Shown: positions 14,333 to 41,030, counted from the stretch's first letter. The stretch: DNA of 64,000 nucleotides from an uncultured bacterium (GCA_963827235.1 CAWHAE010000012.1:576001-640000); one strand, 5' to 3'. Notes: generated by a model not told the origin, from the sequence alone. Numbers and translations are program-made.

Positions 14333-17300
14333 ATGGGACAGGATCGCCACGAGATGCCCTCTCAGGTCACCTACAGCCGGCAGTACCGGCGCTGCGGCAA
14401 GGCGGGTTGCAAGCTGTGCGCAGGGGGAGCGCCGGGACACGGGCCCTACTGGTACGCCTACTGGCGGGAGGACGGCCGCCTGCGGTCCCGCTACCTGGGC
14501 AAACGGCGGCCCGACGGGGCGCCCGAGGAGGATGACGCCGCGATTCTTCCACCGCCGCCCGCTGCGGCGGTGACCGTCCCGCTCGCGCCCGCCGGAGCAG
14601 GGCCGATTCCGCATCCCCATCCTGGCACCCAGGCTTCGGACGCCGCAGCCTCGCGCCTGCGCATCCGCACGCTCGGAGGCTTCGCGGTCTGGCGGGGTGA
14701 AGTACCGGTGCCCGCACGCGTCTGGCAGCAGCGCAGGCTCGCCACCTTGCTCACCTGCCTGCTCAGCGCCCCCGGTCACCAGCTGCATCGAGAGCGTGTG
14801 ATCGCGCTTCTCTGGCCCGACGCGGACGAGGACGCCGGGACCGAGAGCCTGCGGGTGGCCCTGCACCGCCTGCGCGGCGTGCTGGATGGCCCGGACGCGA
14901 CCGCCAGCTGTATCCGCGCCGAAGGCGAACTGCTGCTGTTCCGCCCGCCCACGCCGGAGGAGGCTCCTGCCGACTGGCTCGACGCCGACGCTTTCGAGCA
15001 CGCGGCTCAGCAGGCGCTGGCCTCGAGCGACCCGGCACTCTGCCGGGCGGCGCTGGTGCTCTATACCGGGGAGTATCTCCCGGGTGACCTCTATGCGGAC
15101 TGGGCGGCGTCCCGGCGCGAGACCCTCCGGCTGCACTACCTCGCCGTGTTGCTGCGACTGGCGGAGCTGGCGGGGGTGCGGGGTGAGGTGGACGAGGCGG
15201 AGGAATGTCTGCGGACCGTCCTGACGCTCGACGCCTGCCACGAAGAGGCCGCGGGTCGCCTGATGGGCCTGCTTGCCTCCGGAGACCGACGTGCCGATGC
15301 GCTGCGCGTGTACGACGATCTGGCGGCTGCCCTGAAGCGTGATCTCGGATCTGCGACCCTCCGACGACCTGGCGCTGCTCTATCGCCAGTTGCTGGCGGC
15401 CGGCACCGTGCCCAGCGCCGCCAGCCAGCTCGCTCCGGCGTCGATCCCGATTCGACGCACGAAACTCCCCGTGCCGCTCACCTCGTACGTCGCCCGTCCG
15501 CACGAGGAGCAGCGCCTGCGCGACCGGCTGGCCCAGGCCCGGCTCCTCACGCTCACCGGCACCGGCGGCTGCGGCAAGACACGGCTCGCCCTCCACTGTG
15601 CCGCCGGCCTGCTGGAAACCTACCCCGACGGCGTGTGGCTGGCCGGGCTGGCGGCGCTCCCGGCCGGGCAGGAGGAGAGCACCGTGACCCGCGCCGTGGC
15701 CGGGGCGCTGGGGCTGGTGGAGGAGGCCCAGCGCCCGCTAAACGAAACCCTCACCGCCTTCCTGGCTCCCCGCACCATTCTGCTGGTGCTGGACAACTGC
15801 GAGCACGTCGTGGCGCCCGCGGCCGCGCTCGTCGACGCCCTCCTGACCGCCTGCCCCCGGCTGCAAGTGCTGGCCACGAGCCGCCAGCAGCTGAAGGTGC
15901 CGGGGGAAGTGACCTGCTGCGTGGGCTCGCTGGCGCTGCCGCCACCATCGTCCGGGGCGCAGGCACTGCCGCGCTACGAGGCGGCGGCGCTGTTCCTGGC
16001 GCGGGCGCGAGACACATCGCCGGAGCGGCTGAACAGCACGGAGGCCGCGGCAGCCATCGCCCAGATCTGCATCCGGCTGGACGGCATTCCCCTGGCCATC
16101 GAGCTGGCGGCGGCCCGGGCGCGCCTGTTGCCCCTGGCCACCATTGCCTCTGGACTGGACGACTGCTGTCGCCTGCTCACGGGCGGGCCACGCACGGTTC
16201 TGCCCCGCCAGCGCACCCTGCGGGCCACCCTGGACTGGAGCTACGCACTGCTGGAGGAGCGTGAGCGCGTGCTCCTACGTCGGCTGGCTGGCTTTGCCGG
16301 CGGGTGGACACTGGAGGCGGCGGAGGCCGTGTGCAGCGACACCGCAGTGGCCGGACCGGCTCCGGAGGTGCCTGTGCTGCCGGCGGGCGACGTGCTGGAC
16401 GTGCTGGCGGGCCTGGTGGACAAGTCCCTGGTGCAGGTCCAGCACCGTGACGGGACAACCCGCCACCGATTCCTTGAGCCGGCGCGGCAGTACGCAGCCG
16501 ACATGCTGACCGCCGCCGGCGAGGCAACGACGATCCGGGACCGGCACCTGACATGGGCCGTGACGTTCGCAGAGCGGGCGAGGCCGGCGCTCACTGGATC
16601 GGAGCAACTGATTTGGCTGGAGCGGCTGGAGGCGGAGCACGACAATCTGCGCGCCGCGCTGACCTGGGCGCGGGAGCGGTGCGCGGAGGAGTTCGGGCTG
16701 CGTCTGGCGGGGGCCGTGGGACGTTTCTGGAACATGCGGGGTTACTTCACTGAAGGACGACGCTGGCTGGAGGGAGCGCTGGCCGGAACGGGCCACGACG
16801 CGCGAACACCTCGTGCCCTGGCGCTGACCAGTGCTGGTAATCTGGCCTATTCCCAGGGAGATTTTGGGCAGGCGGCAGCGCTCTACGAGGAAGCTTTGGT
16901 GCTCGAGCGCGAGCTAGGGGACAAGCAACGCATCGCCATCTCGCTCAACAACCTGGGGGTGGTGGCGGACAGCCTGGGTGAGTATAAGCGTGCGGTGGGG
17001 CTCTATGGCGAGAGCTTGGCAGTCTATCGTGAGCTGGGGGACAAGGCTGGCATCGCGGGCGCACTCAACAACCTCGGAAGCTTAGCCGAATGTCATGGAG
17101 ACTGCGGGCGGGCGCTCGCACTGCTTGAAGAGGCTTCGGAGTTGTTCCGTGTCCTCGGAGACATCCGGAGCATGGCCATCTCGCTGAGCAATCTAGCGTA
17201 CGCGGCGGACTACCAGGGCGACCACGCGCGGGCGGTGGCCCTCCAGGAGGACGCCCTGGCGCTCAGTCGGCAGGTTGCGGATCCCAGGAGCGTTGCCAAC

Positions 17301-17813
17301 TCGCTCACCGGCCTCGGCGCTTTTGTGTGTCGGCAGGCTGACTACGGGCGAGCGGTGGCCCACCTCAACGAGAGCCTGACGCTGCAGCGTGCGTTGGGGA
17401 ACAAGGAGGGCATCGCACGGACGCTCGTGGTTCTCGCAGAGGTGGCCCACCGGTTGGGCGACGAGGCCCGGGCAGCCGGTCTGCTGCGTGAGGGCGTCCG
17501 CCTCAGTCGAGACATCGGTGCCAGGGATTGGCTGGCCCGAGGGCTGGAAGCGATGGCCAACGTAGCCGCGGCAGGTGGGGTGCATCGGCGAGCGGCGGTG
17601 CTCGCCGGGGCGGCCGAGTCGTTGCGCTGCGTGATTGGCCTTCACCGGCCGCCATTCCTCGCTGCGGAGCAGGAAGCATTGGTGCAGCGCTTGCACACCG
17701 CCCTGGGCGACGAAGCGGAGGCATCGTGGCATACGGGCCGGGTGCTGTCGCTCGACCAGGCTGTCGACCTGGCGCTGGATGAGCAGGAGCGCCGCACACC
17801 GGTCCTGGCCTGA
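14333..17813 (+). CDS. DUF6788-like Zn-finger + wHTH/BTAD + NB-ARC ATPase + TPR regulator (AfsR/SARP-like), frameshift near 15350
   Basis: CGKAGCKLC..HGPYWY; LHRERVIALLWP; DADAFE, DACHEEAA; GTGGCGKT, LVLDNCEH, LDGIPLAIELAAAR; SLNNLG TPRs; one extra base at GATCTCGGATCTG joins ORFs 14249-16264 and 15339-17813. Confidence 0.85.
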
Positions 17814-28815: not shown

Positions 28816-29406
28816 TCAGGCCATGCACAACTCCTCCTGCTGCATCTCGGGTACCGCTGTGTGCAGGAACGTCTCCACGAAGCTGCCGTCCCACTGCTGC
28901 CCGGCGCCTTCCGCGAGCGCTTCGATCGCTGCGCGTACCGGCAACGCGGGGTGAAACGGGCTTTCGTGGGTCAAAGCGTCGAAGCATTCGGCGATGGCGA
29001 TAATCCGCGATCCGAGCGGAATGCGCTCCCCGCACATGTGGCCTGGATAGCCGTCGCCGTCGAAGCGTTCGTGGTGGTGGAGGACGATTTCCGCCGTGCG
29101 CTGAGCCCCGGGTTGCGCGCGCAGATAAGCGGCGCCACGATCCGTGTGATGGCGCACCCAGCTCCACTCCAGCGGCGTGAGGCGGCGAGACCGCACAAGG
29201 GCCGCTTCCGGCACCGCCAGCTTGCCGATATCGTGCAGCCGCGCCGCGTCGAGAATCAGCTGCGCATCCTTCCCCGTCACGCCCAACGCCTTGAGCGTCG
29301 GCGCCACGAGAGCCGCCACGCGCTTACAGTGCCCCGGCATGCCGGAGCGCACGTCGGCGGCATCGGTAAGGCTGCCCAGTACGGTCATCGCAGTCTCTGT
29401 AATCAT
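28816..29406 (-). CDS. Stand-alone HD-GYP domain protein
   Basis: HCKRVA, LHDIGK, HHERFDGDGYP, IPLGSRIIA; start uncertain. Confidence 0.85.
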   Translation of the reverse strand: MITETAMTVLGSLTDAADVRSGMPGHCKRVAALVAPTLKALGVTGKDAQLILDAARLHDIGKLAVPEAALVRSRRLTPLEWSWVRHHTDRGAAYLRAQPGAQRTAEIVLHHHERFDGDGYPGHMCGERIPLGSRIIAIAECFDALTHESPFHPALPVRAAIEALAEGAGQQWDGSFVETFLHTAVPEMQQEELCMA

Positions 29407-29431
29407 GTTCTCGTCTGGTCGCAGGCACCGA

Positions 29432-29836
29432 TCACCGCCGGATCGGAACCGTGCGACTCGCCCTTTCTGCGCCCTGACTCCGGCCGCTCGGCCAGGTTGT
29501 TGCTGAGGTCGATCCATGATGGAGTGCGCCCACGTACTCGCCGCTGCGCCAAGCACAGACGGGGCGTGTGCCGACCAATCGAATGGGCTCCGTGCCCGCT
29601 TCATACTCCGCCGCACCCCAGGAGCCGTCCTGCGGCGGACGCCCGCAGGCGCGACGACTCACGGCGTCCGCGAACTGCTCCAGCGTCTGCGCCTGAATGC
29701 CGACCAGGGATTCGGCGAGCAACTTGTCGTAGCCGGCGTCGATGGCGGCACACCGCGGGTTTGCCAGCAGGCGCCCGGCAAAGGTGCCGTCCACCGAGGC
29801 CTCGGCGAGTAGCCGTTCGTAGGTGCGAAACCGCAC
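29432..29836 (-). CDS. Small protein resembling NHLP-clan (Os1348/Franean1_4349-like) leader domains
   Basis: ERLLAEASVDGTFAGRLLANP..AGY; AGGAG/GGAG RBS before GTG. Confidence 0.55.
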   Translation of the reverse strand: MRFRTYERLLAEASVDGTFAGRLLANPRCAAIDAGYDKLLAESLVGIQAQTLEQFADAVSRRACGRPPQDGSWGAAEYEAGTEPIRLVGTRPVCAWRSGEYVGALHHGSTSATTWPSGRSQGAERASRTVPIRR

Positions 29837-29958
29837 AGCTCCCTGCTCCTATTCCTGACATAACGCGTCGATGGTAGGATATGTATCGTCCCGGTCACGG
29901 CCATCGACGCCGTGTGCACATGGCAACCGCAATGCTCGGCTCTGAGCCTAGGTGGGGG

Positions 29959-30228
29959 CTATGCGTTGAGCGACTCACTATCGGCAGCGGCTACAGGCGC
30001 CTGCTGCGCGAAGGGCTGCGCGCCAAGCCCGTCGGCTAGCAGCGACGTGGCGGCAAACGGCTGCGCGCCGAGACCATCCGCGATCTTCGAAACGTGGGCG
30101 AACGGCTGCGCACCCAGCCCGTCGGCCGTGGAACGGCCCGTGTTGTGCGTGGGTGAGATGCTTGCGGACGATAGCAGGGAACCGGCAACGAGGCTGCTGA
30201 CCGTGATGGCGGCGACAAGCTTGCGCAT
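29959..30228 (-). CDS. Secreted 89-aa multicore propeptide (3 x ADGLGAQPFA)
   Basis: GAAGGAAAGG RBS; MRK plus hydrophobic signal; three identical 10-aa cores at a 15-aa period differing only at synonymous codons. Confidence 0.8.
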   Translation of the reverse strand: MRKLVAAITVSSLVAGSLLSSASISPTHNTGRSTADGLGAQPFAHVSKIADGLGAQPFAATSLLADGLGAQPFAQQAPVAAADSESLNA

Positions 30229-30281
30229 GGGACTGCCTTTCCTTCGGCTCGATGTGCTCGAGGCCACCTCGAGCTGCCGCC

Positions 30282-30314
30282 AGACTAGGCTTCGTCCCGT
30301 TCCCACACCGTTCC
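30282..30314 (-). promoter_or_regulatory. SARP/BTAD-type activated promoter of the propeptide gene
   Basis: Minus strand GGAACGG-tgtg-GGAACGG-9 nt-TAGTCT; no recognisable -35. Confidence 0.6.
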
Positions 30315-30372
30315 ACGGTTTTTGCCCCCTTGAGCTCGCGGACATCCCTCCGCGCCGCACTGGAGGCTCCTG

Positions 30373-33300
30373 ATGGAGACGCCGGATCTGCTCCCATTCC
30401 CGCTCAGCAAGCTGGCGCCGCCGGTAGCCCGGCGGCCGCCGATCGCGCGACCGCGCCTCTTCGCCCAGCTTGGAAGCGGGAGCCGCCTGCTCCTGGTCAC
30501 CGCTCCTGCCGGGTTCGGCAAGTCGTCCCTACTTGCCTCCTCGATCGCCGAGACCGACCGATCGCCCGACCTCTGGCGGCCTGCGCATGCCGCCGACCAT
30601 CGTTTCGTCTGGTACAGTCTCGACGAGGCCGACGCGGATCCCGGAAGGCTGGTCGACGGCCTGGCTGCGGCCTACGAGCGAGTGGCACCAGGCACAGGCG
30701 GACCGTCCCGGGAGATGCTGGCTGCCGGCGCAAATGTCTATGCCGCTCTGGCCTCGCTAGTGGCGCGGGCCGAGCAGGCTCCCACGACACTGGTCCTGGA
30801 CAATTGCCACAACCTCGAGGGGGCGGGTGAGGCGGAGCGCGCCCTCAGCTACCTGCTCGCGAACTGCCCTTCGGCGCACCGCATCGTGATCGCCGGTCGC
30901 GGTACGCCGGCCACTCCTGTTGTTGCCGCCCTGGCAGCCGGCGCCGTGCGCTCCCTTGGCCCGGACGATTTGCAGTTCGGCGACGACGAAGCGGCTGCGC
31001 TGGCCGCGTTGTACGGCGTGTCCGAGGACCGGGCTGCCGCCGTGGTGCAGCCGGCGGCAGGTTGGGCCATCGGCATTGTGCTGCTGGCACATGCCGGCGG
31101 TCGGGATGCCGCCATCCTGCAGCGCCCGATTGACGCGCTGGCCGACTACTTGATGAGCGAGATCGTCGACCGGCTGCCCGAGGCGTCACGCAGGTTCGTT
31201 CTGGAGAGCGCGCTGCTCGGAACATTCGATGCTGCGGCAGCCGACGCGATCCTGGAGCGCACGGACAGCGCACTCGTGATCGACGGCCTCCTCCGACGTG
31301 GCATCTTTCTGGACTGCTTCCCTTCGCAGGACGGATTCCTCACCCGCTATCACGATCTGTTTGCCGCAGCCATGGCCGGCCGCTTGCAGCGCCAGGAGCC
31401 CCGGCGATGCCGCGAGATTCACCGCCGTGCCTCCGACTACTATGCGGACGATCCTCATCGGGCCCTGGCACACGGCGCGCGCATGCACGACCCGGACTAC
31501 CTGGCGCAGCAGCTCGATCGCTACCTGCCCATGCTGCGCCGGGCCGGGCACTGGGAAGCTCTGGTCCGCTACGGGGAACAGCTCCCGGTCCGATTGCAGT
31601 CCCTGTTTCTCCAACGCGTGCTGTCGTTCGCTCATTACACTCGCGGCGACGATCGGGCCGCGCTGGCAGCTGCCGACCGCGTGTACGAGGCCGCGGTGGC
31701 CCAGGGAGATCGGGAAGCACGCTACTCGGCCCTCGTGTTGCGGGCGAACACGCACTTCAGACAGGAACGGTATGCCGAGCTCCTGCAGTACTGCCTACCT
31801 GCCCTCAGCGAGGCGCGCGCGGCCGGCTTTGCGCTGGGCGAATGCTGGCTGGCATGGAACGTTTCCAAGGCGCTCCTGCGTGAGGGCCGTGTGCGGGAAG
31901 GCCTGGCCATGGTGAGCCGCACGCTCGAGCTGTATCGCTCGCTACCCGGGCCATCGACACCGCTCTCCATGGCCTTCTACGAGCAGGACGTTGTCCCGAT
32001 ACTGCTCGAGACCGGCGATTGCGAGCGGGCGGAACGCTTGCTTGCCGATGCCGGGGCGATCGCGGGCGACTTCGACGACCGATCGCTCGTGCTGGCTTGT
32101 GAGGCGACGAGGGCGGAGATCCTTCTGTTGCGCGGAGAGTTCACGGCAGCGGCGGACCTCGCCGAGCGCGAGGTCTCGCTCACGGCGCGGGAGGGCAGTC
32201 CCATCGCGCACTACACGGCTCTGCGCGCCCACGCCCTCGCCTGCTCGGCGCTGAGGCGGCACGACGACGCACGGCGAACGCTCGACCGGTACGTGGACTT
32301 TGTCGTCACCTGGCCCGGCACCGTCCGGCTGCAGGCGGAGGTCACCCGCATCAGACTGGCATTGGCGGCGGGCGACTCGGGCGCCGCCCGCCGTGATCTG
32401 GCCGCTCTTGGTGCCCTGGATCCGCCCGAGCGTCTGGCGGCGGAGATCTCACTGGAGGCCGGGACGCTTGCCCTGCTGGAGGGGCGCGATCGCGACGCCG
32501 ACCGTCACCTCGGGTGTGCGGCGACCGTGCTGGCGCGATACGCCCGCCGTCCGGCGGCGGCACTGGCGCTGGTCCTGCGTGCTCAAGCCATGGTGCATCT
32601 GGGCAAGCAGGCACGCGCGGCGACCATGCTCGGCCAGGCGGGGGAGCTTGCCTGCGATGCGCAGTGGCTTCCGTGGCTCGTTCACCATTCGGCAATGGCG
32701 ATCGAGACGCTGCGGACCGTGGAGTCGTACTGGAGACTCCAGGGTAAGGCGCGCAAGCTCTATGAATCGCTGCTGGAGAGCGTGCCGAAGGCTGCCACGC
32801 AGACGGCCGTGCGGCGCCAGTCGCCTCCGGCCGCCGTAGGCACGCAGGATGGTTCTCTCGAGCCGATCGTCTTCAGCCCATTTGGCAGCGGCACCATGAC
32901 GCTGCATGAGGCCACCGTGCCGCTCTCCAGAATCGGAGGCGGGAAGGCCCAGGAGATGCTGGCCTATGCGATCTGGCAGGCTCGGCCTCTGCATCGCGAA
33001 GAGATACTGGAGGCGGTGTGGGATGGAAGGGTCGACGAGCAGTCGCTCAGCGCCTTGAGGAAGGCAGGCTATCAGATCCGTCGTCTGCTCGGCGAGCAGG
33101 CGTGGCAGCGCGCTAAGAGCATCTACACCTTCATGCCGCCTGTGGACGATGCCTATCGCTCGCTGCTGGCGACAGCAGTGGGCATTCGCGACCTGAAAGG
33201 GACGCCGGCCGAGGTCGCCGTCTTGGCCGCCCGGGCGCTCGCCAACTACTCGGCACCCTACTTGAGCTGGTGCTACAGCGACTGGGTGGAGGAGCCGCGC

Positions 33301-33585
33301 AGCCTGGCGGAGACGGCGGCGCTGGCTCTGATCGAGGCGCTGGCGCAGGCACGCAGGGAGCTCGGACAGCCACTGATGGCGCTGGAGGCACTTGAGCGCG
33401 GACTGGCCATGCAGCCCTACAACGAGTCGCTGCGGCGAGCGCACGTACAGCAACTGCTCGAGCTGGGCAAGCCGGTCGACGCCGCAGCAAGCTACCAGCG
33501 CCATCTTCGCGTGCTGAAGGATGAGGATCTGGGCGCGCCGTCGAGCGAGTTCCTCACACTGCGCTCGGCACTACCGACGGCGTAG
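30373..33585 (+). CDS. MalT-like STAND ATPase + TPR-like sensor + wHTH + BTAD transcriptional regulator
   Basis: GGAGG RBS; KLAPP..RPRL, APAGFGKS, WYSLDEAD.DP, LVLDNCH, GWAIG, RYHDLF; C-terminal HREEILEAVW, DWVEEPR, PYNE. Confidence 0.87.
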   Translation: METPDLLPFPLSKLAPPVARRPPIARPRLFAQLGSGSRLLLVTAPAGFGKSSLLASSIAETDRSPDLWRPAHAADHRFVWYSLDEADADPGRLVDGLAAAYERVAPGTGGPSREMLAAGANVYAALASLVARAEQAPTTLVLDNCHNLEGAGEAERALSYLLANCPSAHRIVIAGRGTPATPVVAALAAGAVRSLGPDDLQFGDDEAAALAALYGVSEDRAAAVVQPAAGWAIGIVLLAHAGGRDAAILQRPIDALADYLMSEIVDRLPEASRRFVLESALLGTFDAAAADAILERTDSALVIDGLLRRGIFLDCFPSQDGFLTRYHDLFAAAMAGRLQRQEPRRCREIHRRASDYYADDPHRALAHGARMHDPDYLAQQLDRYLPMLRRAGHWEALVRYGEQLPVRLQSLFLQRVLSFAHYTRGDDRAALAAADRVYEAAVAQGDREARYSALVLRANTHFRQERYAELLQYCLPALSEARAAGFALGECWLAWNVSKALLREGRVREGLAMVSRTLELYRSLPGPSTPLSMAFYEQDVVPILLETGDCERAERLLADAGAIAGDFDDRSLVLACEATRAEILLLRGEFTAAADLAEREVSLTAREGSPIAHYTALRAHALACSALRRHDDARRTLDRYVDFVVTWPGTVRLQAEVTRIRLALAAGDSGAARRDLAALGALDPPERLAAEISLEAGTLALLEGRDRDADRHLGCAATVLARYARRPAAALALVLRAQAMVHLGKQARAATMLGQAGELACDAQWLPWLVHHSAMAIETLRTVESYWRLQGKARKLYESLLESVPKAATQTAVRRQSPPAAVGTQDGSLEPIVFSPFGSGTMTLHEATVPLSRIGGGKAQEMLAYAIWQARPLHREEILEAVWDGRVDEQSLSALRKAGYQIRRLLGEQAWQRAKSIYTFMPPVDDAYRSLLATAVGIRDLKGTPAEVAVLAARALANYSAPYLSWCYSDWVEEPRSLAETAALALIEALAQARRELGQPLMALEALERGLAMQPYNESLRRAHVQQLLELGKPVDAAASYQRHLRVLKDEDLGAPSSEFLTLRSALPTA

Positions 33586-33590
33586 TGAGG

Positions 33591-36548
33591 TCACGGGCTT
33601 GTCACGATCACGTTGTCGTATTCCGGCGTGTTCGCAGTGCGCAGCCCGATCTCGCCGCTTGCCAGGCTGCCGTCCGTCACCGTGGCGACCACGGTGCCGC
33701 CGATCGAGGCAGAGATGGTCGTGCCGCTGAAGGATAGCTTCAGCGTATACCACGTGCCGGTCACGGGAGTAAAGCTTCCGGATGCAAGCTGGGTAAAGGC
33801 GCCGCCCACCCGCTTCGCCAACTGCCACCGCGTGCCGTCGTGCAGCAGCAGTATATAGGCGTCGTTGAAATCGTGCCAGCGACCGGCGATGCCGAAGGGC
33901 GCCGCGCCACCCGGTGCTTTGACGCTGACGGACATGGTGTAGTTGGTCCATGTGGGATTGCCCGTGGTGAGCTCCGCGGTGTTGCTGATCGCGGCAGTTT
34001 GCTGGACCACGTGTGTTTGGTCCTGTACCACGCGCCAGGTACCGCCGCTCGAGGACACCCAGTTGGCCGGTAGTGCGCCAACGGCGTCGGACTCGAAGCT
34101 GTCGGTCAGCAAAGTCCCGCTCGTCGTCGGCGTATTGGTCGCGGTGGCACTGGGCGTGGCCGAGGCGGTCGCTGTTACCGTCGGGGTCGCCGTAGCACTG
34201 GGCGTGCTGGTGGGGCTCGGCGTGGCGGCCGCGCCCGTCCCGGTGACCAGCACGTTGTCGTACTCGGGAGTGTTCAGTGTGTGGAAGCCGACCAGACCGC
34301 TGGTCAGACTGCCATCCTTGACTGTGGCGACCACGGTGCCGCCTATCGAGGCAGTGATGGTCGTGCCGCTGAAGGCGAGCGTCAGGGTGTACCAGGATCC
34401 GGTTACCGGGGTGAACGTGCCGGAGCCAAGCTGGGAGAACGTGCCGCCCACCCGCTTGGCGAGCTGCCACTTGGTGCCGTCCCGCAAGAGCAGCATATAG
34501 GTGTCGTTGAAGTCGTGCCAGCGCCCGAGAATACCGAACGGGTTGGTGCCACCGGGTGCTTTGACGTCGGCCGAGAATGTGTAGTCGGTCCAGGCGGCAT
34601 TGCCGGCCGTGAGTTCGGCGGCAGTGGACACCGTGGCGGTCTCGGTCACGCTGTGGGACTGATCCTGCACCACGCTCCATGTGCCTCCCGTCGCGGTCCA
34701 GCCGGTCGGGGCGGCGCCGATCGAATCGGCCTCAAAGTTGTCGGAGAACAGGGTGCCGCCCGGAAGCGGCGTGTTCGTGGCGACCGGCGTGACAGGGGTA
34801 TTCGTCGTGGTAGGCGTGGCGGTCGTGGTGGGTGTGGACGACGACGACAGCAGGCCGTAAACGTTGAGGTAGCCGGAGAACGTGGCCAGGTAGACCTTGC
34901 CGTTGGCCACCGTCGGCGCCACGAACTTGGCCCGGTCTCCCACTGCATCGCGGGCCGCGTTCTGATCGCTGTCCCAGAGCTCTTTGCTCAAGTCGGAAGC
35001 GTCGAAGGCTCGCAGAATGCCGGTGCGAGTCTGCGTGTCGCTGCTACCGCTGCTGGGCATCGCTGCCCACAGAATGCCGGTACCTGCGGTGGTGCCGTTT
35101 GCCGATAGCGACATCTGGCCCGCCCCTGTCGTCAGGGCCGTCACCGTGCTCTGTGTGTTCGGCGTGGTGGCAAACAGGCCGCCGGTGAAGCGGAACTGCT
35201 TGAGGCGATCGCTGTCGCCCGACGTGTACATGAACGGCCCGTTGGGCCCGTTCCAGTACACGGGGCTGCCGCCGATGTGCATGTCGCTGCCTGGAGTCAC
35301 CTGGAACTCCTGGTGCACGAGGTCGCCCGTGGCGTTGAAGTGCCCCATATTCCCCGTGTCCACGACGTAGAGCTTGCCCTCCTTGCCGCCGCCTACCACG
35401 TAGCTGGTGCCGGGCAGAAGCAGGACTCCCGAGGAGCCCAGGTCAAGATCCTGGTTGTTCAGGTTTACCTGGTCGCTGGGAGAGAAGTAGTCGGTCACGG
35501 CGCCTGCCGGGCTTACCTTCACGAAGCTGTCGCCGTAGCTGGCCCCGCCGCTGCCGATCGTGAGAGCGCCGTTGCCGGTCATGGCATAGATGTTGCCGGC
35601 GGCATCGGCCGCCGGGCCTTCGCCGCTCTGCCAGATGCCCGCGGCCTGCGTGTCCGGCGACAGGTTGACCACTACCGTCTGCGCGAGCGTGGCGGCGTTG
35701 TATCCGAGCAGCCAGCCGTTGTAGGGTTCCTGCTCGCCATGTCCGGCAAAGCCGATGTAGACGTTGCCGTTGACCAGCAGCAGCGCGGAGCGCTGAAGCT
35801 GCTTGAAGGCGCGGAACGTGATCACGCCCTTATTGCTGTTTCCGCCGGTACCGGGTACGGTCGCCGCGATGACGACCGGGCCGCCAAACTTCTCGGCGCC
35901 CGTGCGGATGTCGAGCGCGTGCAGGCGGAAGTAGTAGGTGGCCGTGCCGTTGACCATCTCTTTCGTGAAGGCCACCGCGTACAACGTATTGCTGGCCGGG
36001 TCGATGACCGGCGTGCTGAGGATACCTACCTCGACGGCGATATCGTGAAAACCGGTACCGAAGTCGACCGCCGGGGAAGACGGGCCGAGATTGGTGCTCC
36101 AGAGCGGAGTAGTCTGTGCCGGATCATCGGCGTCGAAGGCGTAGACCGTGTTGTGCATGGTCGCTACGTAGACGACGTTGTGGGTACCCCCGGCGATGGA
36201 GACGTCCGGCACGTAGAGCGGCTGAGCATAGATCTGCCCGTCTACCGGTCGCTTGAACAGCAGACCAAACCCGGCCACGTTGACGTTCGATGTGGTGAGG
36301 ATCGACTCGTTCAGGTTGTCACCCGAACGGTTGTTGTCGTTATGCTGTGTCAGCACGCTGGCCAGGCCGGCCGCCTTGCTGGTCGAAGGATCGAGTATCG
36401 TCAGCCTGGGCGCCATGGCGGCGATCACCGCCGCGGCGAGTAACCAGAGGAACATCGAGCGCCGGAGCAGCCCGCTCCGCGGAGTTCTGCCCGGCCATAC
36501 CGGAGACGCGCTACCGTGGGTTGCTGGATTGTGCATCTGGCTTCTCAT
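33591..36548 (-). CDS. Secreted PQQ-like beta-propeller protein with Thr/Pro linkers and two ConA/DUF1080-like domains
   Basis: VLTQHNDNNRSG, VDGQIYAQPLY, DLDLGSSG, KFVAPTVANGKVY; two near-duplicate FSDNFE..EYDNV domains. Confidence 0.8.
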   Translation of the reverse strand: MRSQMHNPATHGSASPVWPGRTPRSGLLRRSMFLWLLAAAVIAAMAPRLTILDPSTSKAAGLASVLTQHNDNNRSGDNLNESILTTSNVNVAGFGLLFKRPVDGQIYAQPLYVPDVSIAGGTHNVVYVATMHNTVYAFDADDPAQTTPLWSTNLGPSSPAVDFGTGFHDIAVEVGILSTPVIDPASNTLYAVAFTKEMVNGTATYYFRLHALDIRTGAEKFGGPVVIAATVPGTGGNSNKGVITFRAFKQLQRSALLLVNGNVYIGFAGHGEQEPYNGWLLGYNAATLAQTVVVNLSPDTQAAGIWQSGEGPAADAAGNIYAMTGNGALTIGSGGASYGDSFVKVSPAGAVTDYFSPSDQVNLNNQDLDLGSSGVLLLPGTSYVVGGGKEGKLYVVDTGNMGHFNATGDLVHQEFQVTPGSDMHIGGSPVYWNGPNGPFMYTSGDSDRLKQFRFTGGLFATTPNTQSTVTALTTGAGQMSLSANGTTAGTGILWAAMPSSGSSDTQTRTGILRAFDASDLSKELWDSDQNAARDAVGDRAKFVAPTVANGKVYLATFSGYLNVYGLLSSSSTPTTTATPTTTNTPVTPVATNTPLPGGTLFSDNFEADSIGAAPTGWTATGGTWSVVQDQSHSVTETATVSTAAELTAGNAAWTDYTFSADVKAPGGTNPFGILGRWHDFNDTYMLLLRDGTKWQLAKRVGGTFSQLGSGTFTPVTGSWYTLTLAFSGTTITASIGGTVVATVKDGSLTSGLVGFHTLNTPEYDNVLVTGTGAAATPSPTSTPSATATPTVTATASATPSATATNTPTTSGTLLTDSFESDAVGALPANWVSSSGGTWRVVQDQTHVVQQTAAISNTAELTTGNPTWTNYTMSVSVKAPGGAAPFGIAGRWHDFNDAYILLLHDGTRWQLAKRVGGAFTQLASGSFTPVTGTWYTLKLSFSGTTISASIGGTVVATVTDGSLASGEIGLRTANTPEYDNVIVTSP

Positions 36549-36556
36549 CCGTTCGA

Positions 36557-37684
36557 CTATGACGCCATCGAGGCGAACCACTTGGCCACCACCCGGCCGG
36601 TTGCAGTCTGCGAGCCCGTGTAGAGATCGATCGCCCGCTCGGGAGCGGTTGGGCTATTGCCGCTGAGCTGCCAGTATTCGACGCCCGCGATATACGATTG
36701 TTGCGCCATCCAGCCCATGATGCGATCGGTCGTGTTCGCCGTTGCGGGCTGGGCGCCGCTTTCAATGGTGTCGCCCCATTCGACCACGATTGGCTTGTGG
36801 AACGCGTTCCAGCTCGCTTGCAACTGGGAGGTGAAGCGCGTGAAGTCGATCGTGAAATGGTCGACGTTGTAGACGCTGGAGTAGGTGAGGGCCTGCGGCG
36901 TGACATAAGAATAGGAATCGCCGGCAAGGCCGAACCAGCCCGAGGCCACATTCTTGCCGATGCGCTGGAACGCAGCCTGGTCGACACGGCCAAAATCGCT
37001 CAGCCACTGATTGAAGGCGGCCGTGGACGGAAACTGGCAAACCTGCTTCGGGCAATGGGCCGCCGATGTGCCGGCAGGTCCGTTGGCGATGCCGTCGTTC
37101 TGCGGCTCGCCGAACGGCTCGAAGATGTCGCCATCCTGGAACAGATCGGCGTGGCGCAGGATCCACTGGAAGGTCATGCCCATATAGGACGTGGTGTCGG
37201 TGCCTTGCAGTACCGCCGAAACTCCGCCGCTAGTCTCATACGGTATGGCAGGGCTGGTGCTGTACGAGAGCTTGGCCATGCCGAAGCCGCCGGCCCAGTG
37301 ATTCCAGTTGCCGCGGTAGATCACGTGCAGGCCGGCGGCGTGTATGGTGCGCGTCCAGGCTCGCAAGTACTGGTCCGGCGATAGCGGACCTACGTGGCAG
37401 CTGAAACCCGAGGCGTCGTCAAGCGGCACGCTCTCTGAGGCGAGGTTGGCGTGGAACTGGGCCACGTAGCCCACCAGCCGCGTGATGGCGGCCTGACCGT
37501 ATTGGCTACAAACGGTGTCGTGTGAGAGGCTCGTCAAGCCCATGTCGCGCACCGACCAGCCGCGTGTCGTCCTGGATTCCCATGCCATCGCACTGGTGGG
37601 GTGGGCGCCGCAGAGCGGAAGGACCACCACGGCCAGAGTGGCAACCAAGCGGTCGATCTTGCCGAAGCGTGAGCGTATTGCCAT
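36557..37684 (-). CDS. Secreted putative clan GH-A-like glycoside hydrolase
   Basis: Signal peptide; AAGLHVIYRG, DLFQDGDIFEPFGEPQN, KPIVVEWG, GVEYW. Confidence 0.6.
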   Translation of the reverse strand: MAIRSRFGKIDRLVATLAVVVLPLCGAHPTSAMAWESRTTRGWSVRDMGLTSLSHDTVCSQYGQAAITRLVGYVAQFHANLASESVPLDDASGFSCHVGPLSPDQYLRAWTRTIHAAGLHVIYRGNWNHWAGGFGMAKLSYSTSPAIPYETSGGVSAVLQGTDTTSYMGMTFQWILRHADLFQDGDIFEPFGEPQNDGIANGPAGTSAAHCPKQVCQFPSTAAFNQWLSDFGRVDQAAFQRIGKNVASGWFGLAGDSYSYVTPQALTYSSVYNVDHFTIDFTRFTSQLQASWNAFHKPIVVEWGDTIESGAQPATANTTDRIMGWMAQQSYIAGVEYWQLSGNSPTAPERAIDLYTGSQTATGRVVAKWFASMAS

Positions 37685-38927: not shown

Positions 38928-39176
38928 GGCACTTGCCGAACAGCAAACATGGCTGCGCCAAGGCCGGGCAGGCCGATGCCACGCGCGTGATTGGCGCCGA
39001 ACCCTCGACCCGAGTTTTGCGCGAGTATGCCGAGACCGGAAGGCGAGGTTCCCCGCCGTCATGCGCCTGGCGGGCAGTCTGTCTCGGCCGTACGCGCACG
39101 CGCACGCGCGCATCAGCTGTTGGCTTGTGTACCACATGCTATACTCGAACCTGGACCAATACGATGCGAAGGTCCG

Positions 39177-39265
39177 CCGCTAGGGGTGCGCGCAGGCGCT
39201 GAGAGGTGGCTATAAGCCATCAACCCTCCGAACCTGATCCGGTTAGTACCGGCGAAGGGAAGCCG
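39177..39265 (+). ncRNA. TPP riboswitch
   Basis: AGGGGTGC..GCTGAGAG..ACCC..GAACCTGATCCGGTTAGTACCGGCGAAGGGA consensus; upstream of thiamine genes. Confidence 0.93.
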
Positions 39266-39286
39266 CAACGGCGCTCAAGGAGGATG

Positions 39287-39369: not shown

Positions 39370-40170
39370 ATGCTATCGCCGTACGTCTACGTGGAGCGTG
39401 TGAGCCACGCCTTTGCCCGTGGCCGGGATCCTGCCGTCGAGGCGTTGCGCGACGTCTCGTTCACGGTCGAGCGGGGTGAGTTTGCCAGCCTGGTCGGGCC
39501 CAGCGGTTGCGGCAAGAGCACCCTGCTGCGCCTGCTGGCCGGGCTCCTGCAGCCCACGCGAGGCAACCTGACGGTCGGAGACGCACCCACCGGCCGGCTT
39601 CTGGGGGCCGCCGGGTACATGCCGCAGCGCGACCTCCTGATGCCCTGGCGCACGGTAATCGACAATGCTACCGTGGCATTGGAGTTCGCCGGCGTGCCGC
39701 GCCGCGCCGCTCGGGAGCGTGCCCGGGCGCTGCTGCCCACGTTCGGTCTGGAGGCCTTCGAGACGGCGCGCCCCGCGTCGCTCTCCGGCGGTATGCGCCA
39801 GCGCGTATCGCTGCTGCGCACCGTCCTGGCCGGGCACCGCCTGCTGCTGCTCGACGAGCCCTTCGGCGCCCTGGACGCTATCACACGCGCCGAGCTGCAC
39901 GAATGGCTGGTCGACGTGCTCGCCGGGCTCGAGGCTACCGTGATCCTGGTCACCCACGACCTGGATGAAGCGGCGTTCCTCTCCGATCGCGTCTACGTGA
40001 TGACCGAGCGCCCCGGGCGTATCGCCGCTTCCGTAGCGGTTCCCATCCCGCGGCCCCGTACCTACGAGGCCACCACCACCGGCCAGTTCGTTGACATAAA
40101 GCGATCGCTGTTGGAGGCTTTGCGCGCGGCTCGAAGGCCGTTGCCTGCCGCGGCCGGAGGTGGGCGATGA
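39370..40170 (+). CDS. thiZ: ABC ATP-binding protein of the HMP/thiamine-precursor transporter
   Basis: GPSGCGKS, LSGGMRQR, LLLDEPFGALD; TPP context. Confidence 0.8.
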   Translation: MLSPYVYVERVSHAFARGRDPAVEALRDVSFTVERGEFASLVGPSGCGKSTLLRLLAGLLQPTRGNLTVGDAPTGRLLGAAGYMPQRDLLMPWRTVIDNATVALEFAGVPRRAARERARALLPTFGLEAFETARPASLSGGMRQRVSLLRTVLAGHRLLLLDEPFGALDAITRAELHEWLVDVLAGLEATVILVTHDLDEAAFLSDRVYVMTERPGRIAASVAVPIPRPRTYEATTTGQFVDIKRSLLEALRAARRPLPAAAGGGR

Positions 40171-41030
40171 GGCAGCAGACCGGAGCAGGCCGGCCGGCGA
40201 CATGCCGCCTCTGGCGCGCCTCCGCCGTAGGGCGTGCGCCCAGCCGTGGCCCGGCGCGGCGCCGCCGTCGCTGGGCAGGCTGGCTGCTTTCGGCGCTCAT
40301 CGTCGTCGCGCTGCTGCTCGGCTGGCAGGCGGTGATCTGGATAGGGAATCTGGAGGAATACATCCTGCCGACGCCGCTGGAAGTGTTGCAGGCGTTCGGG
40401 CAGTCCGACACGCGCGGCTTGATCCTCGACAACCTCGGTCCCACGCTGACCGAGGCCTCGCTGGGTTTCGCGCTGTGCCTGGTCGTAGGCGCCCTGCTGG
40501 CCGTGGCCATGTTCGCCTCGCGCGTGGTGCGCGACGGGCTCTATCCCCTGTTGATCGCTTCGCAGGCCATCCCCACCATCGCCATTGGCGCCGTCCTGCT
40601 GGTGGCGCTAGGCTACGGACCGCAGCCGAAGATCGCGGTAGTGGTGCTGTACTCGTTCTTCGCCGTCAGCGTGAACGTCTACGACAGCCTGCAAGCGCTC
40701 GATCCCGAGCTTCCCGCCCTGCTTCGCACGCTTGGCGCCTCACCCTGGCAGGTGTTGTGGACCGCGCGCGTCCCCGCCGCCCTACCGGGCTTCTTCACCG
40801 GCGCCAAGCTGGCCGCTACGTACAGCATCTCGGGAGCCATCTATGGCGAGTGGGTGGGCGCCACCGGCGGCCTGGGCTATGCCCTTCAGATGGCGGCCAA
40901 TCAGAATCACTCGCCCACGGTGCTGGCCATCGTCGTGGTCATGGCAGTGCTGGGCATCCTGGCGTTTTCCATCGTGGCCGTGCTCGAGCGGCTATTCGTG
41001 CCCTGGTCCGGAGGAGGATTGGATCGATGA
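40167..41030 (+). CDS. thiX: ABC permease (SsuC/TauC type), HMP transporter
   Basis: YILPTP, SQAIP, GAIYGEWVG..GLGY; ATGA overlap. Confidence 0.8.
   Translation: MRQQTGAGRPATCRLWRASAVGRAPSRGPARRRRRWAGWLLSALIVVALLLGWQAVIWIGNLEEYILPTPLEVLQAFGQSDTRGLILDNLGPTLTEASLGFALCLVVGALLAVAMFASRVVRDGLYPLLIASQAIPTIAIGAVLLVALGYGPQPKIAVVVLYSFFAVSVNVYDSLQALDPELPALLRTLGASPWQVLWTARVPAALPGFFTGAKLAATYSISGAIYGEWVGATGGLGYALQMAANQNHSPTVLAIVVVMAVLGILAFSIVAVLERLFVPWSGGGLDR

Follow-up and report, generated by a model that had tools for sequence, protein, structure and literature searches.

A conserved gene cassette pairing multicore secreted propeptides with a STAND-TPR-SARP regulator in Chloroflexota, a plausible peptide quorum-sensing system

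Signalling by encoded peptides that are read by a cytoplasmic receptor is viewed as a speciality of the Bacillota and their phages, according to the accessible part of PMC10075063. In the RRNPP(A) systems (Rap-Phr, NprR-NprX, PlcR-PapR, PrgX, Rgg-SHP and AimR-AimP-AimX) a small exported propeptide adjoins a cytoplasmic receptor-regulator, a tetratricopeptide repeat (TPR) protein of about 300-400 aa with an N-terminal helix-turn-helix (HTH). We analysed a stretch of 64,000 nucleotides from an uncultured bacterium (GCA_963827235.1 CAWHAE010000012.1:576001-640000; hereafter the window), which belongs to contig C12 of G000, an 8-Mb genome in 21 contigs (completeness 95.9%, contamination 9.06%) whose genus is a member of the phylum Chloroflexota. 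The window holds a cassette in which a short open reading frame (ORF) for a secreted-looking propeptide with three identical cores is divergent from the gene of a 1070-aa regulator composed of a STAND (signal transduction ATPase with numerous domains) NTPase, a TPR sensor and a C-terminal SARP (Streptomyces antibiotic regulatory protein) module. An earlier note, made from the sequence of the window, had proposed that the two form a peptide quorum-sensing system. The observation was confirmed and enlarged to a family of gene cassettes; the quorum-sensing reading is plausible and the best available.

The cassette resembles RRNPP(A) systems in that a small propeptide, exported to judge by its signal sequence, adjoins a cytoplasmic TPR receptor-regulator, and in that one genome can hold several paralogous cassettes, each with a different peptide, much like the multiple orthogonal Rap-Phr cassettes. 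The layout of receptor, propeptide and small output gene also recalls arbitrium. Rap-Phr propeptides with tandemly duplicated pheromones have been documented as well (PMC11343458, available in part). Unlike in RRNPP(A), the receptor is a 1070-aa STAND NTPase with a C-terminal SARP module, the host is a member of the Chloroflexota and not of the Bacillota, an NHLP-like protein is a conserved partner, and the cores have 8-10 residues and end in P-[FLY]. RRNPP receptor families were absent from the Pfam and NCBIfam matches of the regulator at E <= 0.1, which comprised a MalT-like NTPase, TPR_MalT, TPR_12 and BTAD only; by these profiles the cassette is not an RRNPP member. The proposal of RRNPP-like logic with another receptor class was partly supported, by the conserved pairing and the paralogous cassettes; the receptor is no RRNPP member and the NHLP-like partner stays unexplained by it. 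No published description of such a system was found (subscription journals lay outside the coverage), in agreement with the claim that no system of this receptor architecture has been characterised. In the RRNPP_Detector paper (PMC10075063) the word 'Chloroflexi' is absent from the main text; its supplements and those of PMC9765709 could list candidates from outside the Bacillota.

On the minus strand of the window the gene order is propeptide (29959-30228, 89 aa from the ATG at 30228), NHLP-like gene (29432-29836, 134 aa) and HD-GYP gene (28816-29406). The regulator gene (30373-33585) lies on the plus strand, head-to-head with the propeptide gene across a gap of 144 bp (30229-30372). All of these had been called correctly in the earlier note, as had the presence of a ribosome-binding site, a Sec-type signal and three identical cores in the small ORF; the core had been given as ADGLGAQPFA, and its tenth residue is not conserved. 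The RBS-like sequence GAAGGAAAGG (30236-30245), read from sequence, stands 7 nt before the ATG. Residues 1-23 (30160-30228; MRKLVAAITVSSLVAGSLLSSA followed by S) were judged a Sec signal by their charged start, hydrophobic stretch and small residues. The three copies of ADGLGAQPF occupy residues 35-43 (30100-30126), 50-58 (30055-30081) and 65-73 (30010-30036), separated by spacers of 6 residues each (AHVSKI and AATSLL) and followed by a 16-residue tail. Fungal alpha-factor-type precursors are likewise composed of a signal peptide and then several identical mature peptides with spacers; they are eukaryotic, are processed by Kex2/Ste13, act on a surface G-protein-coupled receptor and have no homology to this propeptide.

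The 45-nt DNA repeat was the top row of Tandem Repeats Finder in the window (score 115 vs. 41-65 for the others), and its copies match only 74% at the DNA level. The three cores nevertheless have the same protein sequence, with synonymous differences in 7 of the 9 codon columns. Across the four orthologous type-A loci (the window, L007, L012 and L013), amino-acid variation within a precursor was found in 0/9 core columns and synonymous variation in 3 to 7 of the 9. Cores were kept between orthologues, and spacers and tails were divergent. This pattern of substitution identifies the cores as the units under selection in the propeptide. High-GC DNA gives many spurious ORFs, and the antisense frame sharing third codon positions is likewise open in the window and in L012, so that the small ORF might be read as a non-coding tandem repeat that is open by chance. 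We consider this scarcely credible. The sense frame is open in 4/4 loci, with start codon, signal sequence and ribosome-binding site conserved among the orthologues; the antisense frame has three stops in L007 and one in L013; and differences between the copies are synonymous in the sense frame only. The layout is moreover common to 12 small precursors from independent sources. The antisense ORF was rejected as a real gene because of the stops in two of the four loci and because its repeat copies in the window differ in amino acid. An RTX-type calcium repeat was also rejected, since the cores are 15 residues apart with variable spacers and are not contiguous nonapeptides.

Homologues of the propeptide comprise P0002 (75% identity), the precursors of G001 and L013, and nine further small precursors. 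The latter came from a profile search of 1.84 billion representatives (E <= 0.001) with 18 matches, nine of them small precursors with the same signal sequence. The other nine were longer or lacked a signal match; five of these were assessed (P0046, P0047, P0051, P0052 and P0054) and dropped as unrelated repetitive proteins without a signal sequence, P0042, P0048, P0050 and P0056 being left out. Core position 10, A in the window, is V, S or P in relatives, and the conserved core is thus the 9-mer ADGxGxQP[FY]. G001 (L007) has ADGSGTQPF three times and L013 has ADGIGVQPY three times. Cores in the nine small precursors include ADGGTQPF (x3), AEGGGVQPF (x2), ADTVGNNPL (x4 and one cut copy), ADG[IM]GQKPYPPR (x3) and ADGLGAQPF (x2); two of the nine combine unlike copies (ADGSGTQPF with ADGSGTLPL, and ADSGGTTPL with ADGAGTGPL). 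Each lineage has its own allele, altered in all copies together, as in ADGSGTQPF, ADGIGVQPY, ADGGTQPF, AEGGGVQPF and ADTVGNNPL. Alleles that are identical across the copies of a precursor argue for recognition by a co-evolving, sequence-specific partner.

The GTDB order of the host consists of five genomes, all of one genus, to which two metagenome contigs (L012 and L013) were added. Twelve modules of three types were counted in this sample: the window, L007 (G001), L012, L013 and L044-L051. A small signal-bearing peptide gene stood next to the NHLP-like gene in 12/12 modules, and the regulator was divergent to the peptide gene in all ten modules whose sequence extends to that side (L012 and L047 stop short of it). 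From these counts the pairing of peptide and regulator is a conserved cassette and not a coincidence. The NHLP-like profile found two more copies in G000, each beside a regulator paralogue of about 30% identity. The three cassettes of G000 encode ADGLGAQPF x3 (C12), SAGGANGGPL x7 with N changed to S in one copy (C16), and a single-core precursor (C10; VHA followed by GGGAGSPPIF). Single-core precursors were also present in G002 and G003 (...IQPGPL...). Other multicore precursors carry five ASGITSGPL-like copies (G004), NTSGGPL x3 (G002), SVNTGSGPL x4 (G003) and two GGVPAxxGPL copies (G001, contig C684).

Type-B precursors (L044 3207-3683, L046 4341-4655, L047, L048 and L049) all contain a Cys near the end of the hydrophobic stretch, in surroundings that look by eye like a lipobox (e.g. 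LAAGC, SASC), and an (A/V)HA site directly before the first core. No Cys stands in a lipobox-like context in type-A precursors. Before their release, type-B precursors might be held by a lipid anchor.

Beyond the genus, matches to the NHLP-like profile occurred in 33 of 401 sampled Chloroflexota genomes (E <= 0.001), many of them weak and partial and located in other gene contexts. Ten of the better loci, all from other Chloroflexota families, were taken as a distant set. A full-length regulator homologue (1015-1197 aa) was located directly upstream and on the same strand in seven of them, and in six of these seven the gap between regulator and NHLP-like gene held a small ORF with a signal-like start. 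The distant small ORFs are weaker evidence than the multicore genes because the signal filter was crude and such ORFs are common in GC-rich DNA. One of them ends in LVADGTQPSIVGGPGMP, resembling the type-A core; other endings include ...VIGGGGGGPTLP, ...VIGGTGGPPTGH and ...HLVADGTQPSIVGGPGMP. At L138, a distant locus, the NHLP-like gene had no regulator within 7 kb. Genes downstream in the distant loci looked like housekeeping genes by eye. Among 80 loci with generic MalT-like homologues from many phyla, an NHLP-like neighbour was present in two, both from G002. A more distant NHLP-type gene of 72 aa was seen at L026 (G181:C39:511079-514267) in another Chloroflexota family, between genes for TPR and P-loop proteins; this context differs from the cassette and is again STAND-like.

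The regulator begins with a MalT-like NTPase core (residues 12-481; 30406-31815), in which Walker A (APAGFGKS) and Walker B (LVLDN) motifs are visible. NCBIfam MalT (NF003420) matched this segment at 7e-43 and 146.8 bits, against an equivalog cutoff of 537; by this score the protein is a relative of MalT and not an equivalog. Pfam matches on the regulator were AAA_16, AAA_22, TPR_MalT, TPR_12 and BTAD, and MalT (8bob, 1.1e-22) was the only sequence relative of residues 1-830 among PDB structures. The putative TPR sensor region (residues ~430-830; 31660-32862) matched weakly, with 34.6 bits for TPR_MalT (under the cutoff of 45) and 19 bits for TPR_12; the distant cassette homologue L135 reached 73 and 88.9 bits, respectively. 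The C-terminal SARP module (32863-33582) consists of a winged HTH (wHTH, residues ~832-926) and a BTAD domain (~927-1066; 44.8 bits vs. a cutoff of 22.1). A PDB sequence search with the C-terminal 270 residues gave no matches. An AlphaFold model of the last 275 residues, built with 13 sequences, had a predicted local distance difference test (pLDDT) score of 87.9 and displayed a beta-sheet, three helices and a beta-hairpin, after which comes a domain made of helices only. A fold search with this model retrieved the AfsR SARP domain (8hvr_I, E 2e-8, template modelling (TM) scores 0.74/0.80) and EmbR (2fez, 2.5e-8). Trans_reg_C was weak (~1e-3) in distant regulator homologues, two of which were scanned and contained TPR, weak Trans_reg_C and BTAD. 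The proposed domain order ATPase, TPR, wHTH, BTAD is therefore correct, given the Pfam and NCBIfam matches and the superposition of the C-terminal model on SARP domains. A search of 5.8 billion clusters (E <= 1e-5) yielded four full-length relatives of the sensor and output part besides the query.

MalT of E. coli is thus homologous over the N-terminal 480 residues, after which the regulator has a sub-cutoff match to TPR_MalT. STAND proteins that have a TPR sensor are switched on when an inducer binds this sensor, and the logic expected from MalT is that the inducer releases autoinhibition and ATP-dependent multimerisation follows (PMC6468293, accessible part). Unlike MalT, whose inducer is a sugar and whose output is a LuxR-type HTH, the regulator has a SARP output (OmpR-type wHTH and BTAD). 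With AfsR and the large SARPs of actinomycetes it shares the same three blocks, SARP domain, STAND NTPase and putative TPR region, and the AfsR SARP domain and EmbR can be superposed on its last 240 residues (TM 0.68-0.80). The order is inverted, NTPase-TPR-SARP here vs. SARP-NTPase-TPR in AfsR, and the C-terminal part has no sequence-level match in PDB; the accessible part of PMC11301090 describes no peptide ligand for AfsR. We class the regulator as a relative of MalT that has SARP as its output domain, neither MalT proper nor a large SARP of the N-terminal kind.

The 134-aa NHLP-like protein scored below both curated cutoffs, with 26 bits for Pfam Frankia_peptide (PF14407; cutoff 48) and 27.3 bits for the NCBIfam Os1348/NHLP clan (cutoff 40). 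In the family of 31 members a conserved helical head of 64 residues closes with RRVYG and gives way to a variable tail about 28 residues long; a precomputed PF14407 match exists on 20 of the 31, and the family profile matches nitrile hydratase alpha at 3.7e-5. The protein belongs to the LigA-like fold group, which holds leaders of ribosomally synthesised and post-translationally modified peptides (RiPPs), ComX and a RiPP recognition domain (PMC12353581, PMC8939145 and PMC7726476, each in part); in ECOD, Frankia_peptide is placed together with Nif11, ComX, DurB and the recognition domain of TglI (PMC12353581, accessible part). Like NHLP, Nif11, Frankia_peptide, Os1348 and ComX proteins it has an NHLP-type N-terminal helical motif and combines a conserved head with a variable tail. 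Unlike them it has sub-cutoff scores and an RRVYG end in place of a double glycine, no modifying enzyme or transporter is encoded nearby, and it is paired with a STAND-SARP regulator and a secreted peptide. Judged from gene neighbourhoods, no other partner accompanies the regulator as constantly across Chloroflexota, and the protein is probably an important component. The window protein is longer than its relatives (134 vs. ~90 aa). Relatives end just past a motif like EPMRLVSA; in the window ORF this motif reads EPIRLVG and the frame continues, which suggests a lost stop codon or a lineage-specific extension.

The third gene of the minus-strand series encodes a stand-alone HD-GYP phosphodiesterase of 196 aa from its ATG (longest ORF to 29616). 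HD_5 matched at 108.9 bits (cutoff 27.2) and both HDIGK and HHERFDGDGYP are present in the translation, indicating a full HD-GYP domain. An HD-GYP gene was located downstream of the NHLP-like gene in nine of the 11 genus-level modules with sequence there. L013 ends before this position, and L050 and L051 (the third module type, G002/G003) have a receiver-domain protein instead. No HD-GYP match was found in the ten distant loci. The HD-GYP output suggested in the earlier note was overstated in that the component appears to be specific to this genus. HD-GYP proteins of type-B modules and of the G000 C10 module carry an extra N-terminal segment of about 150 residues without a Pfam match (L044 1965-2951, L045 1929-2903, L046 3103-4197, L047 2056-3144), which is missing in the window protein. 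The metagenome relative L012 has tandem HD-GYP genes (663-1349 and 1276-2049) after the NHLP-like gene.

An alignment of the intergenic regions of the window, G001 and L013 revealed a nearly invariant block, AAAAACCGTGGAACGGTGTGGGAACG(G), at 30297-30323 on the minus strand (AAAAAnCGTGGAACGnTnTGGGAACG at 30298-30323), within otherwise divergent sequence. The block holds two GGAACGG units at 11-bp spacing. A -10-like hexamer, tentatively assigned, follows 9 nt downstream of the second unit (TAGTCT, 30282-30287, minus strand; TATTGT in G001, TAGGAT in L013). No sigma-70 consensus promoter and no -35 consensus were found in the window intergenic region, which is what a promoter dependent on an activator would show. 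The direct repeats bound by SARPs overlap the -35 element and lie 8 nt upstream of the -10 (PMC11301090, accessible part). The two-unit block, direct repeats one helical turn apart just upstream of a -10-like hexamer, resembles SARP targets in its geometry; it is a candidate binding site for the SARP module upstream of the peptide gene, and its conservation fits SARP-type activation. The exact pattern GGAACG-N5-GGAACG occurs three times in the 8-Mb genome, the extra two being close to chance expectation, and this low number agrees with a regulator specific to the cassette. Repeats of their own, spaced by 10 or 11 bp (TCAGGGT, AACACAGG, CCCAAC), are present in the other module types and conserved between orthologues; no such spaced direct repeat was found in the G000 contig C10 module.

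In type-B modules (L044, L046, L048 and L049) the repeats are 20-45 nt away from the start codon of the regulator, and the peptide gene follows about 270 nt downstream of them; this implies a long 5' leader of the peptide operon or a different promoter layout. The presumed 5' untranslated region (UTR) of the window peptide gene contains a perfect inverted repeat, CTCGAGG-N3-CCTCGAG (30257-30273, minus strand). L013 has CTCGAG-N5-CTCGAG at the same place and G001 a different hairpin. Folding energies of the inverted repeat were not beyond those of shuffled sequences (z -1.06 in the window, -0.66 in L013), and it might be an additional operator instead of an RNA element. An Rfam scan of the window and three type-B loci gave no match inside the cassettes.

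We propose, with a confidence that falls just short of even, that the cassette encodes an autoinducing loop in which the STAND regulator senses the peptide, and whose output in this genus is HD-GYP. Propeptide, NHLP-like gene and HD-GYP gene would be transcribed as an operon from an activator-dependent promoter, whose two 11-bp-spaced GGAACG repeats would be bound by the C-terminal SARP module of the divergent regulator. The propeptide would be exported by the Sec pathway, and extracellular proteases would release up to three identical (A)DGLGAQPF peptides, each about 9 residues long. When density is high, the peptide would re-enter the cell; the genome has 33 SBP_bac_5 matches (Opp/Dpp-type binding proteins), which shows uptake capacity and is not specific. 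Many Chloroflexota probably have no outer membrane, and this would make it easier to exchange peptides. Once bound to the TPR sensor, the peptide would free the MalT-like NTPase core from autoinhibition, and the regulator would then multimerise with ATP and activate the operon, closing a positive feedback. The co-transcribed HD-GYP protein would lower cyclic-di-GMP as the physiological output in this genus, and the NHLP-like protein may be a further output or a modulator. A co-fold of the regulator sensor (385-835) with propeptide residues 24-89, run without controls, scored 0.01 against a mark of 0.32 and speaks neither for nor against binding.

Several observations weigh against the autoinducing loop. 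The two genes would stand side by side just as well if the regulator only governed a peptide of other function, and whole-module duplication keeps them together, so that their pairing in paralogues does not prove cognate recognition independently. The presence of three cassettes in one genome assumes that C10, C12 and C16 belong together, given the contamination value of G000. Some precursors have non-identical copies (P0044, P0049, G004 and one of the seven copies in C16). As a proxy for co-variation, per-domain identity was compared in regulator orthologues with different peptides; divergence of the sensor region was not markedly ahead of that of the SARP domain (identity 74% vs. 67% in one comparison and 85% vs. 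82% in another), which carries little weight either way. The window repeat taken alone is not beyond chance, as 263 of 500 shuffles reached its score; the corresponding numbers were 2/500 for G001, 3/500 for L013 and 26 to 334 of 500 for other intergenic regions. Since repeats taken singly are mostly not beyond chance, the case for an operator rests on conservation. No dedicated protease or importer gene lies within the cassette. Finally, the loop gives no account of the constant NHLP-like partner, whose fold is typical of RiPP leaders.

In a rival reading the peptide is a regulated secreted product and not a ligand, and the regulator senses another intracellular cue such as a metabolite or a protein. 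The peptide could then be antimicrobial or interfering, surface-active or morphogenetic in filamentous Chloroflexota, or a signal to another receptor, e.g. a membrane kinase. Adjacency and the operator evidence say only that the regulator controls the operon, the relatives MalT and AfsR sense non-peptide cues (accessible parts of PMC6468293 and PMC11301090), and the missing importer and protease genes and the lack of excess sensor divergence fit it as well. The receiver-domain protein that replaces HD-GYP in the third module type hints at other signalling routes. Against this stand the lineage alleles, whose identity in all copies argues for a sequence-specific, co-evolving partner, and the composition of the cassette, which has no conserved immunity gene, dedicated exporter or second receptor. 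The minimal distant unit is regulator, peptide and NHLP-like gene, which leaves only the regulator or the NHLP-like protein as conserved candidate partner of the peptide. We regard a mere regulated product as unlikely, though of all the rival readings it deserves the most attention.

In another reading the NHLP-like protein is itself the direct partner of the regulator, with the peptide acting upstream of it or in parallel. It could be an anti-activator or co-sensor, compare MalK, MalY and Aes on MalT, or an effector output like aimX in arbitrium. Its pairing with the regulator is the widest-conserved feature (12/12 genus modules and 7/10 distant loci) and the gene stands beside only two of 80 generic MalT-like regulators, both of this genus; inhibitory proteins are known to stabilise resting STAND proteins (PMC6468293, accessible part), and among the members of the LigA-like fold class are domains that recognise peptides, e.g. 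the N-terminal one of TglI (PMC12353581, accessible part). L138, with its NHLP-like gene apart from any regulator within 7 kb, argues in the other direction, and selection on multicopy secreted cores would be left unexplained. We think this account clearly improbable. Only a slim chance is given to a RiPP-type locus, in which the NHLP-like protein, possibly along with the multicore peptide, would be the precursor, the enzymes would be encoded elsewhere and the regulator would serve this pathway as a specific activator of the SARP type. RiPP precursors are often multicore; a Sec signal is atypical for bacterial RiPP precursors. The relation to Frankia_peptide and the Os1348 NHLP clan, and a 64-residue leader-like head with a variable tail of about 28 residues, agree with the usual leader-plus-core layout, and SARPs are classic pathway-specific activators (PMC11301090, accessible part). 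However, no maturase, ATP-grasp, radical-SAM, cyclodehydratase or C39 peptidase-transporter gene was found near the cassette in the window, nor was one evident in the distant loci, where downstream genes were judged by eye without a Pfam scan. The head ends in RRVYG and not in a GG-type cleavage site, the variable tails display by eye no recurrent Cys/Ser/Thr pattern, and the window protein is under both curated cutoffs.

With the autoinducing loop kept as the preferred reading, a broader proposal can be made, which we hold as possible and rather short of even: that the Chloroflexota have their own peptide-pheromone family, with a STAND-SARP cytoplasmic receptor, multicore precursors, pherotype alleles, an NHLP-fold modulator or second signal, and cyclic-di-GMP wiring in one genus. 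If true, intracellular peptide reception would exist outside the Bacillota through a receptor class known from sugar sensing, antibiotic regulation and innate immunity, and a second, unrelated receptor class in Chloroflexota would mean that the logic evolved more than once. It would also provide a peptide-ligand paradigm for bacterial STAND/NLR-like ATPases and a way into the social behaviour of a phylum that is mostly uncultured and often filamentous. The allele series, with at least seven homogeneous core variants, would serve as a specificity panel in work on receptors and ligands and in the design of orthogonal synthetic circuits. Should the peptide prove not to be the ligand, regulator, secreted peptide and NHLP-like protein would still form a conserved functional unit of three that has not been described.

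Genes around the cassette in the window, with the HD-GYP and regulator genes between them, include those for ClpB, an MMPL transporter and a secreted lectin-domain protein. The last is a secreted-looking protein of 996 aa (33591-36581, minus strand), convergent with the regulator gene, with two 3-keto-disaccharide-hydrolase/LamG-type lectin domains, Thr/Pro-rich linkers between them and a long N-terminal part without a Pfam match. A second, unrelated STAND-TPR protein of 824 aa is encoded at 15339-17813 (plus strand); it has AAA_22 and nSTAND1 followed by strong TPR_12/TPR_10 matches, and Pfam shows no recognisable DNA-binding domain in it. A TPP riboswitch (RF00059, 69.5 bits, E 1.8e-11) was detected at 39172-39277 on the plus strand, upstream of a region with an ABC permease gene (40167-41030).

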